A program made the translations under genes and the position numbers. This document shows, piece after piece, positions 3,337 to 15,376 of a DNA stretch of 15,376 nt (positions are counted from its first letter, which is position 1; each line of letters begins with the position of its first letter). Below the pieces are notes generated by a model. The model saw only the letters and a program-made list of their open reading frames with translations. It ran no database searches and was not told the DNA's origin. Origin of the DNA: a virus; the UHGV virus genome UHGV-0041029. One strand, written 5' to 3'.

Positions 3337-4296
3337 ATGATAAAAAAACCTGTGATTGGGATCAGCGGTTGTTTGGGCGGTTCTGCTGTTCGTTTTGATG
3401 GTGGTCACAAAAGAGATGACTTTTTAATGGACAAATTAGTGGAATGGGTAACATTCAGACCAGTATGTCCGGAAATGGCTATAGGGCTGCCAGTTCCGCG
3501 TCCTGCTCTACGACTTGTGCGCTCGAAGCAAGGAAATATACGGATGTGTTTCAGCCACGACCAGAATGAGGATGTGACAGAGAGAATGACAGAGTTTAGT
3601 CGTTCTTATATGGACAAATTAAAGGATGTATCGGGGTTTGTGGTTTGTGCTAAATCTCCCAGCTGTGGCATGGAGCGCGTGCGTGTCTATGATGAAAATG
3701 GTAATCGAGGTCGTAAAGATGGAGTGGGACTATTTACGAGCACTTTGATGGAAAAGTTTTCCTGGCTACCGGTTGAAGAGGATGGGCGATTACATGATCC
3801 AGTGCTTCGTGAGAATTTTATTGAAAGAGTTTTTGCTTTGCATGAGCTCAATCACCTTTACAAGGAGAAATTATCAAGAAGAGAGTTATTAGCTTTTCAT
3901 AGTCGTTATAAGCTTCAGTTGTTGGCGCATAGCCAGGCAGGCTATAAAGATATGGGACCATTTGTGGCTGCAATACACGAGTGGGCGGACCTTGAATCAT
4001 ACTTTGAGGTGTATCGTGATAATCTGATGGCGATTCTCAAAAAACCAGCATCACGTAAAAATCACACGAATGTGCTGATGCATATACAGGGGTATTTTAG
4101 TAATTACTTAAGTACACGCCAGCGTAAAGAGTTGAGCGAGGTTATACTTAACTATCGCTTTGGCACATTGCCTCTTCTTGCGCCGTTGACTCTGCTGAAG
4201 CATTATCTGGGTGAGTATCCTAATGATTACTTGCTTACACAGAATTACTTCGATCCCTATCCGGAAGAACTGGCTCTAAGACTGATGGTGAATTAA
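3337..4296 (+). CDS. DUF523 (TudS-like thio-nucleobase desulfidase domain) fused to DUF1722 (YbgA-like); RudS-like putative tRNA 4-thiouridine desulfidase
   Basis: 319 aa, strong RBS gggggagg before the ATG. N-terminal half has Cys in the pattern expected for the TudS [4Fe-4S] ligands (GISGC at 12, PVCPE at 44, VVCAKSPSCG at 104/110). C-terminal half resembles YbgA/DUF1722. Domain calls are by recollection. Confidence 0.65.
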   Translation: MIKKPVIGISGCLGGSAVRFDGGHKRDDFLMDKLVEWVTFRPVCPEMAIGLPVPRPALRLVRSKQGNIRMCFSHDQNEDVTERMTEFSRSYMDKLKDVSGFVVCAKSPSCGMERVRVYDENGNRGRKDGVGLFTSTLMEKFSWLPVEEDGRLHDPVLRENFIERVFALHELNHLYKEKLSRRELLAFHSRYKLQLLAHSQAGYKDMGPFVAAIHEWADLESYFEVYRDNLMAILKKPASRKNHTNVLMHIQGYFSNYLSTRQRKELSEVILNYRFGTLPLLAPLTLLKHYLGEYPNDYLLTQNYFDPYPEELALRLMVN

Positions 4297-4702
4297 CTGT
4301 ATGCGATATCATCTGAAAGTGATGAGTTCCTGTATGCAGGATATTTACAATCGTAAAAACTACGCTATGATGCTCATAGTATCAGTTTTTATAAAAATCC
4401 TGTTCACGCTAAAGAAAACATTGAGATGCAATTTAATGTTGGTAAACATACCAGCCCCAAACGATTTTATTCAATCTGTTTTTATATGAAGATATTTCAA
4501 GTGAATATTAAGAGCATATAATATTATTATTGCACGCAGCTATTATAATATAACAGATTAGTTTAATGATTTGTTTTTTGTGAGTTAAACACATGGTTTT
4601 ATAGTTGTGATGCAATGAGATTTTCCTTATTGTTGAACTGGCGAATATTGATTTTCCACCTATACTTACCTGGTGTAACCCCAATGATATCAGGTGGATA
4701 AT

Positions 4703-5416
4703 ATGCCATACATATGTTCTATCATTTTGGTGTTGAACTCGTTTGGTGTCCGAATTGGTAAAGAAGATATTTTGTTTAAAAAAGGAAATGCTGTCCTCAT
4801 TGAATACAATTTAAAAGATCTTTTTTCGTCAAATACAGATCATCTAATGATCGTAGATGTTGAGGAGAAAACAGTTAATGATTTCTTTAAAAACTACACA
4901 CTCTCACCTTTTTCTGTAAGAAGGTTTTATCCGTCATACTTGATAGTAGAATGTGAAGATTTTTCATTGTTAAAGAACTTGGTTGCATGCTTGAATTGTG
5001 ATAGCAAAACCGTGGATGTAGTTAGAAATCAAATATCACTTGCATGTCTTGCTGTCTTATCTTCAGAGAAAATAGTGCAAAGTTTTTTGTTCGGAAGTCT
5101 TAATAGCTTAGGTTGTAAAGTTAAGGCTATTATTCACTCGGATATCTCAGCGTCATGGAGACTTTGTGATATATCTTCAAGATTATATATGAGCGAGAGT
5201 TTGTTAAAAAGAAAATTAAAAGACGAAGGATTATCGTTTAGTAAATTAATTCTTGAAGAACGAATGATGATGGCGCAAAGATTATTGATCTACAGTAACC
5301 ATACTGTCGGCAAGGTGGCGGGAATATGCGGGTATGACAATGCATCATATTTTGTAAGTGTTTTTAGAGGATATTTTGGTGTGCCTCCGCACCAATATTT
5401 ATCAAGATTTTCTTAG
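4703..5416 (+). CDS. AraC/XylS-family transcriptional regulator, GadX/AppY/YdeO-like
   Basis: C-terminal double-HTH AraC signature (WRLCDISSRLYMSESLLKRKLKDEGLSFSKLI ... GYDNASYFVSVFRGYFGVPPHQY). Gene and upstream 400 bp are visibly AT-rich. Start is probably the ATG at 4703 (aggtgg upstream); the track ORF starts at GTG 4694. Confidence 0.8.
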   Translation: MPYICSIILVLNSFGVRIGKEDILFKKGNAVLIEYNLKDLFSSNTDHLMIVDVEEKTVNDFFKNYTLSPFSVRRFYPSYLIVECEDFSLLKNLVACLNCDSKTVDVVRNQISLACLAVLSSEKIVQSFLFGSLNSLGCKVKAIIHSDISASWRLCDISSRLYMSESLLKRKLKDEGLSFSKLILEERMMMAQRLLIYSNHTVGKVAGICGYDNASYFVSVFRGYFGVPPHQYLSRFS

Positions 5417-10185: not shown

Positions 10186-11919
10186 ATGGGTTTTTCATCA
10201 GCCCGAAATTTGGGAAGGGACATATCGGCAGGATTTTCCCCACCACGTCGCATGCCGATTTCGGAGGCTGTTAAAAAATTCATGCGTGTTCCCAAGGGGG
10301 CTGGTAACTCGGTGCCATGGGATCCTGAACTGACACCCTACATCATTGAGCCCATGAACTGCCTGGCATCGCGTGAATACGATGCGGTGATTTTTGTTGG
10401 TCCTGCGCGAACAGGGAAGACCATTGGTCTGATCGATGGATGGATTGTCTATACCATCGTTTGCGATCCTTCGGACATGCTCGTTGTGCAGATGACCGAA
10501 GATAAGGCCCGCGAGCATTCTAAAAAGCGCCTCGACAGAACGTTCAGAAGCAGTGCGGCGGTAAAGAAAAGAATGAGTCCACGTCGTAACGACAATAATG
10601 TCCATGATAAGACGTTCAGGGATGGCTCGTTCCTTAAAATTGGTTGGCCCTCGGTCAACATTATGTCGTCGTCGGATTACCGGTTTGTCGCCTTAACCGA
10701 TTACGACCGTTTTCCGGAGAATATCGACAGCGAGGGTGATGGTTTCTCCCTAGCCTCAAAACGTACCACCACATTTATGTCCGCCGGGATGACTCTGGTG
10801 GAGAGCTCGCCGGGACGTGACATCTGCGACAGCAAATGGCGACGTAAGTCGCCTCATGAAGCGCCACCGACGACTGGTATTCTTTCCCTTTACAATCGTG
10901 GTGACCGCCGCCGCTGGTACTGGCCATGTCCGCACTGCGGTGAATATTTTCAGCCAGCTATGGATGCCATGACCGGCTACCGTAATGAACCGGATCCCTT
11001 TAAAGCCAGTGAGGCGGCGTATCTACTTTGCCCGCACTGCAGCGGCATTATCACTGCGGAGAAAAAGCGTGAGCTCAATAGTGCAGGAGTCTGGTTACGT
11101 GAAGGTCAGGTCATTGATCGTAACGGCAACGTTTCCGGTGAACCGCGCCGCTCCCGTATCGCCAGTTTCTGGATGGAAGGGCCAGCTGCTGCGTATCAGA
11201 CCTGGGCGCAACTGGTTTACAAATTACTGACTGCAGAACAGGAGTATGAAGCGACAGGAAGCGAAGAAACACTCAGGGCGGTTATCAACACCGACTGGGG
11301 ATTACCTTATCTTCCTCGTGCCAGCATGGAGCAACGAAAAAGTGAACTGCTTGAGCAGCGGGCAGAGCCAGTTCCTTCCCGCAGTGTTCCGGATGGCGTT
11401 AATTTCCTTGTGGCGACAGTGGATGTGCAGGCGGGACGTCATCGCCGTTTTGTGGTTCAGGTAACGGGCTATGGCAGCCGTGGCGAACGCTGGATTATTG
11501 ATCGTTACAACATCACGCAGTCATTGCGCAGTGACTGCGACGGGGAGAGCCAGCGAATTGATCCGGCCAGCTATCCGGAAGACTGGGATGTCCTGCTGGG
11601 GAGCTGGTTTTACGACGAACTGACGTATGAAGAGCGGAGCAGTGACGGGAAATGGAGTAAGCCGGGTCGCGGTGCCAACGAAGCTTTTGACCTGATGGTG
11701 TATGCCGAGGCGCTGGTCATTCTGCATGGATACGAAAAGATCCGCTGGCCGGATGCACCGGAGTGGGCGAGCCGGGAAACCTGGCTGGAGTGTGTCCCGG
11801 ACAGTACCGAACCGTCACCCTCACCGGAGCCGGTATCCACGCCTGTTAAAAAACAAAAACGGAAGAAAACAGTAACTGACGATGTTAACCCCTGGCTGAC
11901 TTCCGGAGGATGGTTATGA
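10186..11919 (+). CDS. Terminase large subunit, lambda gpA family
   Basis: 577 aa. Walker A P-loop (VIFVGPARTGKT), Cys-rich motifs (WYWPCPHCGEYF and LLCPHCSGI) comparable to the lambda gpA CPHC region, and a C-terminal nuclease-type region. Confidence 0.85.
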   Translation: MGFSSARNLGRDISAGFSPPRRMPISEAVKKFMRVPKGAGNSVPWDPELTPYIIEPMNCLASREYDAVIFVGPARTGKTIGLIDGWIVYTIVCDPSDMLVVQMTEDKAREHSKKRLDRTFRSSAAVKKRMSPRRNDNNVHDKTFRDGSFLKIGWPSVNIMSSSDYRFVALTDYDRFPENIDSEGDGFSLASKRTTTFMSAGMTLVESSPGRDICDSKWRRKSPHEAPPTTGILSLYNRGDRRRWYWPCPHCGEYFQPAMDAMTGYRNEPDPFKASEAAYLLCPHCSGIITAEKKRELNSAGVWLREGQVIDRNGNVSGEPRRSRIASFWMEGPAAAYQTWAQLVYKLLTAEQEYEATGSEETLRAVINTDWGLPYLPRASMEQRKSELLEQRAEPVPSRSVPDGVNFLVATVDVQAGRHRRFVVQVTGYGSRGERWIIDRYNITQSLRSDCDGESQRIDPASYPEDWDVLLGSWFYDELTYEERSSDGKWSKPGRGANEAFDLMVYAEALVILHGYEKIRWPDAPEWASRETWLECVPDSTEPSPSPEPVSTPVKKQKRKKTVTDDVNPWLTSGGWL

Positions 11920-11960
11920 ATCAGAATGATATTGAAGCCATGATTCAGCGTTATGGGTGA
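11916..11960 (+). pseudogene. 5' stub (14 codons) of the gene that followed terminase, truncated by deletion
   Basis: ATG overlaps the terminase stop (ATGA), typical coupling for the next head gene. The frame stops after MNQNDIEAMIQRYG, where tape-measure homology begins in another frame. Confidence 0.3.
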
Positions 11961-12798
11961 TCAGCAGCGGCAGCGATATCAGGTACAACTGAGTCTTCGC
12001 CAGAAATACCAGCAACAGCTGGAGCAGTTGAGGCGGGATAGTGAGCAGAAAGGAATATATAACACGGATGACTACAGAAAGGCCGAGCAGGCGCTGACGG
12101 AGAGCCTGAACCGACAACTGAATGAGAATCGCCGTTACTGGCAACAGCTTGAAGTTGTGCAGGGTAACTGGAAAAACGGAGTCCTGCGTGCATTTCAGAA
12201 TTTTACCGTGGATGCAGATAATACGGCAGGAACAGCAGAACAGGTGTTCTCGTCAGCCTTCAGCAACATGGGAAATGGCCTAGCAACTTTTGTCACTACC
12301 GGCAAACTCAATTTCAAATCCTTCACCTCTTCTGTGCTGTCAGATATGGCGAAAATCCTGGCGCAGGCAACCATGATGAAATCGATAAAAGGGATTGGCA
12401 GTGTACTGGGATTTGATCTCAGCAGCCTTTCCCTGAATGCCAATGGGGGGATTTATCAGTCTGCTGATTTGAGTCGTTACAGTGGCACGGTGGTTAACCG
12501 TCCGACGTTTTTTGCTTTTGCAAAAGGCGCGGGTGTGATGGGGGAAGCGGGACCTGAAGCCATTCTGCCACTGCGTCGTGGTGCTGACGGTAAGCTGGGG
12601 GTTGTGGCGGATATTGGTGGTTCAGGTATGGCGATGTTTGCCCCGCAGTACAACATCGAGATCAATAACGATGGCACGAACGGGCAGATAGGTCCGGCTG
12701 CCCTGAAGGTGGTTTATGACCTCGGGAAAAAAGCGGCAGCGGACTTTATGCAACAGCAGGCCCGTGATGGTGGTCGGTTAAGTGGAGCATATCGGTAA
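11953..12798 (+). pseudogene. C-terminal fragment (about 280 aa) of a lambda-like tail tape measure protein (gpH)
   Basis: The C-terminus (NIEINNDGTNGQIGPAALKVVYD...ARDGGRLSGAYR) parallels the lambda gpH C-terminus (VINNDGTNGQIGPAALKAVYD...MRDGGLFSGGGR). The stop overlaps the gpM start (TAATG). No N-terminal 500+ aa present. Confidence 0.8.
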
Positions 12799-13127
12799 TG
12801 GAGACGTTTCACTGGAAAGTGCGCCCGGATATGAATGTGGTATCAGAGCCGAAAGTGGTGACAGTGAAGCTGGGCGATGGTTATGAACAGCGTCGTGCGG
12901 CGGGACTGAATAACCAGTTGTCGATTTACAGCGTGACGATACGTGTTCGTAAATGTGAACACCCATCTTTAAAAGCCTTTCTGGAACGGCACGGTGGCGT
13001 CCGCGCATTTCAGTGGACGCCACCTTATGACTGGAAGCCGATCAGGGTGGTTTGTCGTAAATGGTCGGCAAGCGTGGGGGCGCTGTGGGTAACCATAACG
13101 GCAGATTTTGAACAGGTCGTGGCATAG
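12798..13127 (+). CDS. Minor tail protein M (lambda gpM homologue)
   Basis: 109 aa, METFHWKVRPDMNVVSEPKVV...EFQWTPPYDWKPIRVVCRKWSA...DFEQVVA, collinear with lambda gpM and the same length. Confidence 0.85.
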   Translation: METFHWKVRPDMNVVSEPKVVTVKLGDGYEQRRAAGLNNQLSIYSVTIRVRKCEHPSLKAFLERHGGVRAFQWTPPYDWKPIRVVCRKWSASVGALWVTITADFEQVVA

Positions 13128-13136
13128 GAGGCCCTG

Positions 13137-13409
13137 ATGCAGGATATTTCACAGGAAACACATCATGAGACGACACGCCTCACTCAGTCAGCCCAGGTGG
13201 TGCTCTGGGAAATCGATCTGACCGAGGTAGGCGGGGATCGCTACTTTTTCTGTAATGAGCAGAACGAAAAAGGTGAGTCTGTCACCTGGCAGAGTCGGCA
13301 GTATCAGGCCTATCCCATTCAGGGGAGTGGATTTGAGATGAACGGCAAGGGCAGTGCTGCCCGTCCGACACTGACGGTCTCTAACCTGCACGGCATGATC
13401 ACCGGGATG
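13137..13409 (+). pseudogene. N-terminal fragment (about 91 aa) of minor tail protein L (lambda gpL homologue)
   Basis: MQDISQETHHETTRLTQSAQVVLWEIDLTEVGGDRYFFCNEQNEKGESVTWQSRQYQAYPIQGSGFEMNGKG...TLTVSNLHGMITGM matches the lambda gpL N-terminus. Homology stops near 13409; the open frame runs on to 13523 through unrelated sequence, which is gpJ read out of frame. Confidence 0.8.
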
Positions 13410-13876
13410 GGAATACCAACATCGCCGGTGTCACGGTGGTGTTCCGGGCTGGTGAGCAGGAGCAGACTCCGCCGGAGGGATTTGAATCCTCCGGCTCCGA
13501 GACGGTGTTGGGTACGGAAGTGAAATACGACACGCCGATCACCCGCGCCATCACGTCGGCAAACATCGACCGTCTGCGCTTTACCTTCGGTGTGCAGGCA
13601 CTGGTGGAAACCACCTCAAAGGGGGACCGGAATCCGTCGGAAGTTCGCCTGCTGGTTCAGATACAGCGTAATGGTGGCTGGGTGACGGAAAAAGACATCA
13701 CCATTAAGGGCAAAACCACCTCGCAGTATCTGGCCTCGGTGGTGGTGGATAACCTGCCGCCGCGCCCGTTTAATATCCGGATGCGCAGAATGACGCCGGA
13801 CAGCACCACAGACCAGCTGCAGAACAAAACGCTCTGGTCGTCATACACCGAAATCATCGATGTGAAACAGTGCTAT
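13409..13876 (+). pseudogene. Internal fragment of tail tip/host-specificity protein J (lambda gpJ, about residues 55-220)
   Basis: NTNIAGVTVVFRAGEQEQTPPEGFESSGSETVLGTEVKYDTPITR...[18 protein letters not shown] is near-identical to the lambda gpJ N-terminal region as recalled. It lacks the gpJ start and the C-terminal 900 or so residues. Confidence 0.8.
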
Positions 13877-14309
13877 TCCAGCTGGCTTCGTGGCTGTTTT
13901 CAACAGTGATGAGTCATCGTGGCATCTCGTTGAAGATCATCGGGGTAAAACGGTTTATGACGTGGCTTCCGGCGACGCGTTATTTATTTCTGAACTCGGC
14001 TCATTACCGGAAAATGTCACCTGGTTATCCCCGGAAGGGGAGTTTCAGAAGTGGAACGGCACAGCCTGGGTGAAAGATGCAGAAGCAGAAAAACTATTCC
14101 GGATCCGGGAGGCGGAAGAAACAAAAAACAGCCTGATGCAGGCAGCGAATGAGCATATTGCGCCACTTCAGGATGCTGTAGATCTGGAAATCGCAACGGA
14201 GGAAGAAAACTCGTTGCTGGAAGCCTGGAAAAAGTATCGGGTGTTGCTGAACCGTGTTAATACAACAACTGCACCGGATATTGAATGGCCAGTAGCACCT
14301 ATAGGGTAA
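13875..14309 (+). pseudogene. C-terminal fragment of tail fibre assembly protein (Tfa family)
   Basis: [67 protein letters not shown]... matches Tfa proteins (TfaQ/TfaE-like). Homology starts abruptly at the gpJ junction, so the N-terminal 50-60 residues are missing. An in-frame GTG/ATG could still allow a truncated product. Confidence 0.75.
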
Positions 14310-14392
14310 ATTCGTAATGATTACCTAAATACGTTATTCTTTTGTTCAAAAAGTGATTTTGCTATAGGTAGGGAGTATGTTCTTGGATTAAG

Positions 14393-14425
14393 AATAAAAA
14401 ATCGCCATGAAAGAGCTTCATGGCG
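14393..14425 (-). terminator. Rho-independent terminator for a leftward (- strand) transcript
   Basis: Perfect 9-bp hairpin cgccatgaa-agagc-ttcatggcg (14403-14425). On the - strand it is followed by a T tract (+ strand aataaaaaat, 14393-14402); on the + strand no U tract follows. Confidence 0.5.
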
Positions 14426-14902
14426 AGTACATAAACGTACAAAATGTGATGAAAGTAGAGTGGCGTAAGCCACTATATTAAGATATGACAATAGCGAACA
14501 AAAGTAAATAACATTTTATGGACGTTTAATTGTTAATTATAAAAACTAGAGTGCCCGATATTGTTTATCTTGCTTTAAAATAATGTACTCAAACCAAATT
14601 TTTGAGCTAAAAGCTCAAATAATATAAATGCAATGATAATGTTTAATAAGACAATTAGCTTGCTTTGTATTTTCATTTCGGAATACTGTTAAGTAACTTT
14701 GATGACCCTAACAATAGATCGGAATTTTCTTAGAGTCAATGGTCACTGTTTTTGTTTGCAAAGCAAATGTTTTGGTGGTTATAAGTTTTCCTAATATAGT
14801 CACCTATGCAACTTGTTCCGTGTGGAGATTAAAGGTTAAAATTTAATGCGAAGATGGAATTATAATATATTTTTTTATAATTAATTTAACCTTAACATCG
14901 TT

Positions 14903-14997
14903 GCTGGCGGCATGGAAGAAATATCGGGTCTTGCTGATATCGTGTTGGCACTTCCTTAGTGCGGTTATCGAATGGCCAGCTGTACCTGTGGGGTAAA
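14903..14997 (+). repeat. Degenerate second copy of the tfa 3' end (direct repeat of about 14217-14310)
   Basis: gcatggaagaaatatcgggtcttgctg...atcgaatggccagctgtacctgtggggtaa aligns with gcctggaaaaagtatcgggtgttgctg...attgaatggccagtagcacctatagggtaa at the end of the tfa fragment. The middle part is divergent. Confidence 0.5.
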
Positions 14998-15128
14998 AAC
15001 TTTATATGGATGCTATTTTTATAATAGCTGGTAAAAACTGGCCGAACTGAAATTCACTGTTGATAAAAAAGATGTGTTTGAGTGTATGTCATTGTTTTCT
15101 TAATGGAATCCACTAGAATGCAGCGAAT

Positions 15129-15326
15129 TTAAGAAGGTGGGTTTTTATTGGAATATAAACTACAATAATGCTCAACTCGTTCGTAGAATTGTTTTTTCTT
15201 ATTTCTTGGAATGCTAACCATTATATGCATTATGGGGGCGATACTTCCTGATAATTTACATGATGCATACATTGAAGCAATAAATTCAATATCATTGTCA
15301 TCAAAGTTAAAGCTTTCTCCGTCCAT
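15129..15326 (-). CDS. Hypothetical small protein (65 aa) in AT-rich DNA
   Basis: Only an ORF in an AT-rich region. No RBS or family support checked, and AT-rich DNA yields chance ORFs less often but not never. Confidence 0.2.
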   Translation of the reverse strand: MDGESFNFDDNDIEFIASMYASCKLSGSIAPIMHIMVSIPRNKKKQFYERVEHYCSLYSNKNPPS

Positions 15327-15376
15327 TTCAATTCCTTATGTGTTTGGCACAACTGATGCTGTATCCCATGAGAATT

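Follow-up and report, generated by a model that had tools for sequence, protein, structure and literature searches.

Cryptic and defective prophages reportedly undergo genetic decay by deletion. Structural genes are lost stepwise in such decaying prophages, while lysis, cold-shock and regulatory genes are kept together with the flanks of the attachment sites. In Escherichia coli K-12, the aaaD'/'tfaD joint of DLP12 and the nohQ'/J' joint of Qin are scars of this kind (a slash denotes the point of joining throughout), and the joint between the tail gene J and the tail fibre chaperone gene tfa that is described here is an ordinary prophage deletion scar of the same type. It is found in a 15,376-nucleotide stretch of DNA (UHGV virus genome UHGV-0041029, hereafter the window), which is the right arm of an E. 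coli lambdoid prophage remnant located at the Qin site, on the ydfJ side. The window harbors four deletion joints, namely in the terminase interior and at gpW/tape measure, gpL/J and, lastly, J/tfa. The three upstream joints have microhomologies of 3-5 bp, and the four deletions together leave an immobile remnant with neither capsid nor tail. Cargo atypical of a phage is situated between the Q antiterminator and the lysis genes (window 3337-5416, corresponding to L005 4837-6916), i.e. one gene of the YbgA/DUF1722 family, one for an AraC-type regulator and, on the opposite strand, one for a lipocalin.

As a reference for the missing DNA, we employed an apparently complete lambdoid prophage of strain CFSAN061769 (L003), situated at the same chromosomal site as the window and with the gene order terminase, portal, protease/capsid, tail genes, tape measure, M, L, K, I, J, lom, stf, tfaQ. 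A blastn comparison of the two gave five colinear blocks (Table 1). Between the last two of these, the window lacks L003 positions 13728-20981, or 7,254 bp, a length that should be taken as approximate since that of the tail fibre gene varies (3,279 nt in L001 versus 3,531 nt in L003). The absent DNA comprises J codons 213-1159 (947 residues), the Ail/Lom gene, the 3.5-kb side tail fibre gene, for which (L003 17304-20834) the window has no counterpart, and the first 49 codons of tfaQ. An initial annotation, made from the sequence alone, had read the region as a fusion of the J interior to the tfa interior with some 900 J residues, lom-type genes and the whole side tail fibre gene gone, and the comparison with L003 bears this out as one clean deletion that runs between J nt 635 and tfa nt 147-149. 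The J' fragment is 99.8% identical to the Qin-site alleles of L003 and L009, and the 1,067 nt downstream of 'tfa are 100% identical to L003; as both flanks are thus near-identical native Qin-site alleles, the deletion took place in situ. The J/tfa junction is hereby confirmed as a real, ordinary deletion scar in a decaying lambda-like E. coli prophage. In all probability, it stems from one in-situ deletion of ~7.25 kb by illegitimate recombination in a prophage at the Qin site, the fragments of which are now pseudogenes. We infer a single step, in which the DNA from J nt 636 to tfaQ nt 146-148 would have been lost via homology-independent illegitimate recombination and the ends joined across the 2-bp TA microhomology. 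J was thereby deprived of its receptor-binding two-thirds, and lom, stf and the start of tfaQ disappeared.

Across the joint, around 13865-13895, the plus strand reads ...GAAATCATCGATGTGAAACAGTGCTA/TTCCAGCTGGCTTCGTGGCTG..., and inspection of this sequence revealed no IS, att site or repeat at the joint. The J homology, initially placed as far as 13876 with the residues EIIDVKQCY, ends at 13875, and those residues are indeed read in the J frame; the codon at 13874-13876 is TAT (Tyr), in which TA derives from J (TAC) and the last T from tfa. The middle region of Tfa, expected in another frame from about 13878, was likewise recovered, as the frame of 13866 encodes TfaQ from residue 50 onward, starting at 13875/13878. 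Both pieces hold recognizable domains. J' encodes essentially the whole FNIII-A domain (Pfam PF24801, FNIII-A_GpJ, E = 2e-43, profile positions 3-125 of 126), while 'tfa matches Caudo_TAP (Pfam PF02413, E = 4.5e-44, 150.2 bits against a gathering cutoff of 22.1) over profile positions 1-130 of 131. In the intact, 193-aa Tfa this domain occupies residues 72-191, so that all of it is kept in the 'tfa piece, which matches the intact tfaQ of L001 (WP_023356408.1) at 100% and that of L003 at 99.1% identity. No single intact gene runs across the interval: functional phages are colinear in J through the position of the joint, and the 91 nt around the joint were not found in one piece in any complete E. 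coli genome, the sole match of at least 80% being a different J'/'tfa joint with 15 extra bases. A second, degenerate C-terminal remnant of a tfa gene (tfaX-like) is located at about 14894-14998, in the AT-rich right end; window positions 14894-14976 show 75-83% similarity to K-12 tfaD/tfaX. Being found also in the intact reference, this remnant is older than the deletion.

Table 1. Features of the window and of the intact reference prophage L003, and the partners joined to the two recurrent J endpoints.
Feature	Sequence	Position	Strand	Details
blastn block 1	window	11511-11598		L003 1-88
blastn block 2	window	11595-11954		L003 451-810
blastn block 3	window	11952-13410		L003 9861-11319 (98.1%)
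blastn block 4	window	13406-13875		L003 13258-13727 (99.8%)
blastn block 5	window	13874-15376		L003 20980-22482 (99.7%); tfaQ nt 147 to end plus prophage right end
Terminase joint	window	11595-11598		microhomology GCTG; 362 bp lost inside large terminase gene
Joint of small post-terminase ORF and tape-measure C-terminus	window	11952-11954		microhomology TAT; ~9 kb lost
gpL' fragment	window	13137..13410	+	N-terminal 274 nt of minor tail protein L; L003 gpL at 11046-11744
gpL'/J' joint	window	13406-13410		microhomology GATGG
J' fragment	window	13406..13875	+	J nt 166-635 (codons 56-212); 99.8% identity to L003 13258-13727
J'-frame ORF	window	13436..13909	+	GTG start, 157 aa; through joint into 11 out-of-frame codons; stop TGA 13907-13909
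J/tfa deletion joint	window	13874..13875		2-bp microhomology TA; J GTGC-TA-CCCG, tfaQ CAGA-TA-TTCC; from overlapping blastn blocks, three-way alignments and parental sequences
'tfa remnant	window	13876..14309	+	tfaQ nt 149-582 (codons 50-193 and stop); 100% to L001 6003-6436
Longest tfa-frame ORF	window	13890..14309	+	GTG start, 139 aa, TfaQ residues 55-193; stop 14307-14309; from ORF listing
Native prophage right end, spared by the deletion	window	14310..15376	+	100% to L003 21416-22482
J	L003	13093-16572		
lom	L003	16640-17239		
stf	L003	17304-20834		
tfaQ	L003	20834-21415		followed by same right flank and ydfJ
Right partner of J nt 635	window	tfa nt 147		
Right partner of J nt 635	L002	tfa nt 132		Rac site
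Right partner of J nt 635	L135	J nt 984		
Right partner of J nt 635	L237	J nt 1564		metagenome contig
Right partner of J nt 635	L133	J nt 2723		
Right partner of J nt 635	L136			collagen-like stf repeat
Right partner of J nt 635	L131			sequence without gene name
Right partner of J nt 635	L007			att-lambda site, strain MB06233; 328-nt sequence without gene name
Left partner of J nt ~163	L009, L124; also L007			nu1'; L009 and L124 are K-12-type Qin remnants
Left partner of J nt ~163	window			gpL'
Left partner of J nt ~163	L164			gpT'
Left partner of J nt ~163	L160, L214			ParB-like gene fragment
Left partner of J nt ~163	L237			sequence without gene name

More interesting than the joint itself is the repeated use of its endpoint. 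J nt 635 is joined to at least eight different right partners, that of the window included, in J genes that are 78-97% identical to the J of the window. The joints in L131, L133, L135 and L136 were obtained from IMG/VR by pattern scans for the 20-nt sequence that precedes the joint, with the next base differing from J; in control scans, two conserved 20-mers from elsewhere in J gave no joints, but SNP variants or nothing. The evidence on nt 635 comes partly from such searches aimed at the site, and in a sample not selected for it only one of ~10 right truncations ends at J nt 635. The left end of the window's J', at J nt ~163-166, is reused as well, with at least five left partners, and among ~225 IMG/VR J loci unselected for this site three of the four distinct left truncations start at nt 163-166. 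The two positions flank the segment encoding FNIII-A on either side. This reuse spans independent remnants, different chromosomal sites and J lineages that are only ~78% identical, and nearly every complete E. coli genome also has an intact J. A literature search found no description of recurrent, nucleotide-precise prophage deletion endpoints.

Many endpoints in J fall directly after TA, namely at L003 J nt ~634/635, 982, 1551/1552, 1562/1563, 1775/1776, 2318/2319 and 2721, with J nt 1776 occurring with two different partners (in L142 and L028). Of the 12 TACC sites in J, four serve as breakpoints and are cut as TA/CC; TA makes up only 3.5% of the J dinucleotides. All five J nt 635 partners with parental sequence available are also preceded by TA, which should not be counted as independent evidence, since an end finishing in TA tends to give TA microhomology with any partner. 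On the tfa side, nt 147 is shared by two joints, i.e. that of the window and the aaaD'/'tfaD joint of K-12 DLP12. It was considered as a third hot spot with multiple partners, but the scan gave no third partner, and chance is a plausible explanation for the sharing, as tfa may hold two dozen TA sites (an estimate, not a count).

Since J nt 635 is reused in so many independent remnants, it can be argued that the break there was not random, and "simple random illegitimate recombination" may be incomplete as an explanation. A serious, if tentative, possibility is that a fixed, sequence-determined DNA end exists at J nt 635 (...AAACAGTGCTA/CCCG), which would refine rather than exclude the reading of the joint as an in-situ deletion. 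On an equally tentative footing, a break or stalled 3' end at this nucleotide could be joined to any downstream site after TA (or CTA, or TGCTA), making the window one of a set of nested rightward deletions. That the J' end is fixed and the far end varies, with 2-5 nt of microhomology at the terminus, is what would be expected from a DNA end or stalled 3' terminus at a defined nucleotide, and the number of right partners in diverged J lineages, the blank control 20-mers, the similar behavior of J nt ~163 and the other TA/ ends in J all point in this direction. The pattern also resembles nested deletions beside a transposable element, but no element remains. More generally, a few nucleotide-precise sites in J (nt ~163, nt 635 and other TA/CC sites) might serve as reusable endpoints, from which deletions extend outward to partners with 2-5 nt of shared terminal microhomology, for an unrecognized activity that breaks DNA or transfers strands at specific sequences, be it of host, phage or mobile element origin, and helps disarm prophages, with the joint of the window as one of its products; this we regard as rather doubtful.

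Against a fixed end stands, firstly, that no enzyme or element was found to account for it, in addition to the partly site-targeted nature of the evidence on nt 635. DNA folding around the sites was no better than that of shuffled sequences (z = -1.7 to +0.9), so that a hairpin or quasi-palindrome at the hot sites was rejected, a 6-bp inverted repeat (CAGTGC...GCACTG) being weak. Nor are the sites natural mosaic boundaries between J lineages, as functional phages of both the ~96% and the ~79% lineages are colinear over J nt 1-1000. An IS insertion followed by an IS-associated deletion was also considered; no IS or other insertion was found in ~230 J loci or at tfa nt 147, although an excised IS would leave no trace. 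IS1 copies do occur near tfaQ in two strains, at the 3' end of the gene or downstream of it, not at the breakpoint. Comparison by eye with Pin/Gin/Hin crossover sites, the lambda att core, EcoKI, RuvC, IS5 (YTAR) and IS630 (CTAG) sequences gave no convincing match. RusA cuts 5' of CC, but as a source of the endpoints it fits the TA/CC subset only. To our knowledge, none of the candidates IS-excision-linked deletions (IEE), TA-targeting IS630-family elements, secondary sites of recombinases and RusA-type cutting fits all sites. The in-frame sequence upstream of J in L160 and L214, considered as an alternative J N-terminus, turned out to be the ParB-like gene fragment.

The reading as one in-situ deletion also has to be weighed against an origin in two steps, in which a Rac-type joint of J nt 635 to tfa nt 132 was transferred by gene conversion into a prophage at the Qin site, 15 bp then being lost by slippage between TATT repeats (CTATTGCACCACCAGATATTCC to CTATTCC). 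The remnant L002 does share the J endpoint, its tfa part starts exactly 15 nt earlier, and the additional 15 nt have a 4-nt direct repeat at either end. We nevertheless consider this origin very improbable, because the flanks of L002 have diverged from those of the window by 2.4% in J' and 6.5% in 'tfa (identities of 97.6% and 93.5%, respectively) and the flanks of the window are native to Qin: on both sides it agrees with Qin-site alleles at 99.8-100% identity right to the joint, and this agreement extends to diagnostic SNPs 10-45 nt away from it. The many types of partner at J nt 635 further show that this nucleotide has often been involved in independent events.

What the two fragments of the in-situ deletion could still encode depends on the reading frames at the joint. 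Because the frames of the two genes do not match across the joint, J and Tfa are not fused into one protein. An in-frame TGA stop (13863-13865) lies just upstream of the longest tfa-frame ORF, and the first start codon after it is the GTG at 13890; of the in-frame GTG/ATG codons initially proposed at this position, the GTG is thus present, while the nearest ATG (13909-13911) is out of frame. No Shine-Dalgarno sequence precedes this GTG (...TTCCAGCTGGCTTC GTG), and a consensus scan of the plus strand over 13300-14500 found no sigma-70-like promoter. The accompanying suggestion that a truncated Tfa chaperone domain could still be made therefore fares less well: Caudo_TAP is complete, but the ribosome binding site, the promoter, a joining of the J' frame to that of tfa, the N-terminal 54 residues of Tfa and the cognate fibre gene are missing, stf being absent from the window. 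The full-length frame, upstream fibre gene and expression signals of a functional Tfa chaperone are consequently all three lacking. As for gpJ, with its hub, FNIII and C-terminal receptor-binding regions in one frame of ~1,150 aa, codons 56-212 alone remain. Gene callers annotate the 139-aa ORF as a gene in matching public contigs, and PGAP labels equivalent fragments elsewhere as pseudogenes. J' and 'tfa are best read as pseudogene fragments, of which residual expression would be possible by read-through only, and translation from GTG 13890 would yield a Tfa that lacks its N-terminus and has no fibre left to fold.

These observations also bear on the notion that the remnant has been kept for a useful product, i.e. 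a free-standing Caudo_TAP protein started at GTG 13890 or an FNIII-A domain made on its own by the J' ORF. Both fragments hold complete Pfam domains, every contig with the 139-aa ORF has it uninterrupted and unchanged, and in K-12 DLP12 a tfa fragment with the same start nucleotide continues the reading frame of a terminase N-terminus, giving a 247-aa ORF. The conservation of the ORF is, however, uninformative on selection, because the contigs are 99.87-100% identical overall. In a review of Tfa structure (PMC9608196, citing North et al. 2019), these chaperones are described as modular, a variable N-terminal domain binding the fibre and a conserved C-terminal helical domain driving trimerization. 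By that account, the N-terminal 49-54 residues missing from the 'tfa of the window belong to the fibre-binding part. With the fibre gene gone as well, and a GTG start preceded directly by an in-frame stop, retention for a useful product appears very improbable.

The joint is absent from 5,426 complete E. coli genomes, and two scans of the GTDB species representatives did not find it either. In the same 5,426 genomes, megablast matched window positions 13874-15376 at 99.7-99.9% identity to the 3' portion of tfaQ together with the sequence that follows it, a stretch situated at the right end of prophages adjoining ydfJ-ydfI-ydfZ-rspR-ydfG-dcp, i.e. the Qin site. None of these genomes contains the whole window; the best matches cover 85%, and the genomes concerned have another deletion (terminase/stf C-terminus) with tfa intact. 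By looking up the 139-aa ORF, we found the identical joint in at least five records (L238-L242), namely four NCBI draft assemblies (GCA_900499095.1, GCA_003464415.1, GCA_019841005.1 and GCA_958324925.1) and one ENA metagenome. Over a length of 11,487 nt, L240 does not differ from the window (100% identity), and downstream lie ydfJ, ydfI, ydfZ, rspR, ydfG and dcp. Because the identical sequence recurs in these records, the joint is real rather than an artefact, and as a 2-bp overlap cannot produce a mis-join in a de Bruijn graph, a chimera of assembly or sequencing can practically be dismissed. The joint marks one E. coli lineage. In the metagenome scaffold (L239, positions 12200-20420), the remnant is followed by an integrase, not ydfJ, and by a second Rac/Qin-like early region with DicB, YdfE, Cro and YdaT-type genes, an arrangement that suggests tandem or rearranged prophages at the Qin site.

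Taken alone, the joint is no more than a record of how the tail fibre module disappeared from one Qin-type prophage. It is of use for annotation, in which both fragments should be given as pseudogenes, and as a lineage marker. If the reuse of nt 163, nt 635 and TA/CC holds, prophage inactivation and domestication would become a testable question on one DNA transaction instead of a sum of random deletions, and the reuse would offer a moderately unexpected hint at the way in which prophages become disarmed.

Certain joints in known remnants are close to that of the window. In the FDAARGOS_1337 remnant at the Rac site (L002), K, I and J(1-635)/'tfa are found beside the sit operon, with the same gene pair, J endpoint, TA microhomology and out-of-frame state as in the window. 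It differs in its prophage site, in a tfa part that starts 15 nt earlier, in an intact J N-terminus and in flanks that are 2.4-6.5% diverged. Another J'/'tfa remnant, in strain 01G17CRGN001 near prfC (L006 5336-7623), has other breakpoints (J nt 511 and tfa nt ~318) and directly adjoins genes for a reverse transcriptase and a SLATT-domain protein, which look like a retron-type defence pair at a prophage end. The K-12-type Qin remnant (nohQ' joined to J'/stfQ ... tfaQ pinQ; L009 of strain ZYB62 and L124) belongs to the same site and prophage family as the window, and its J fragment has the same start (~163-166) and is 99.8% identical to the window's J'. Its left partner is the lambda-type small terminase gene nu1, whereas that of the window is gpL', and its J continues to nt 1070 and is followed by an intact tfaQ and then pinQ, while in the window J ends at nt 635, tfa is truncated and there is no pin. 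In K-12 DLP12, where aaaD'/'tfaD is likewise a deletion scar in a lambdoid remnant, the tfaD part begins at the same nucleotide as in the window (TA/TTCCAGCTGG, tfa nt 147-149) with TA/TAT microhomology, both halves are PGAP pseudogenes, and a tfaX-like second tfa remnant follows downstream, as in the window. The left partner is here terminase codon 103 instead of J, the prophage is at a different chromosomal site (the argU/appY side), the tfa allele is just 94.7% identical and the joint is in frame, in contrast to the out-of-frame joint of the window. In a K-12-type DLP12 (L004 3696-4439), aaaD' (terminase codons 1-103) and 'tfaD accordingly form an uninterrupted ORF of 247 codons, annotated as two pseudogenes. 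As a whole, the decay of the window is of the same kind as that of cryptic prophages in general.
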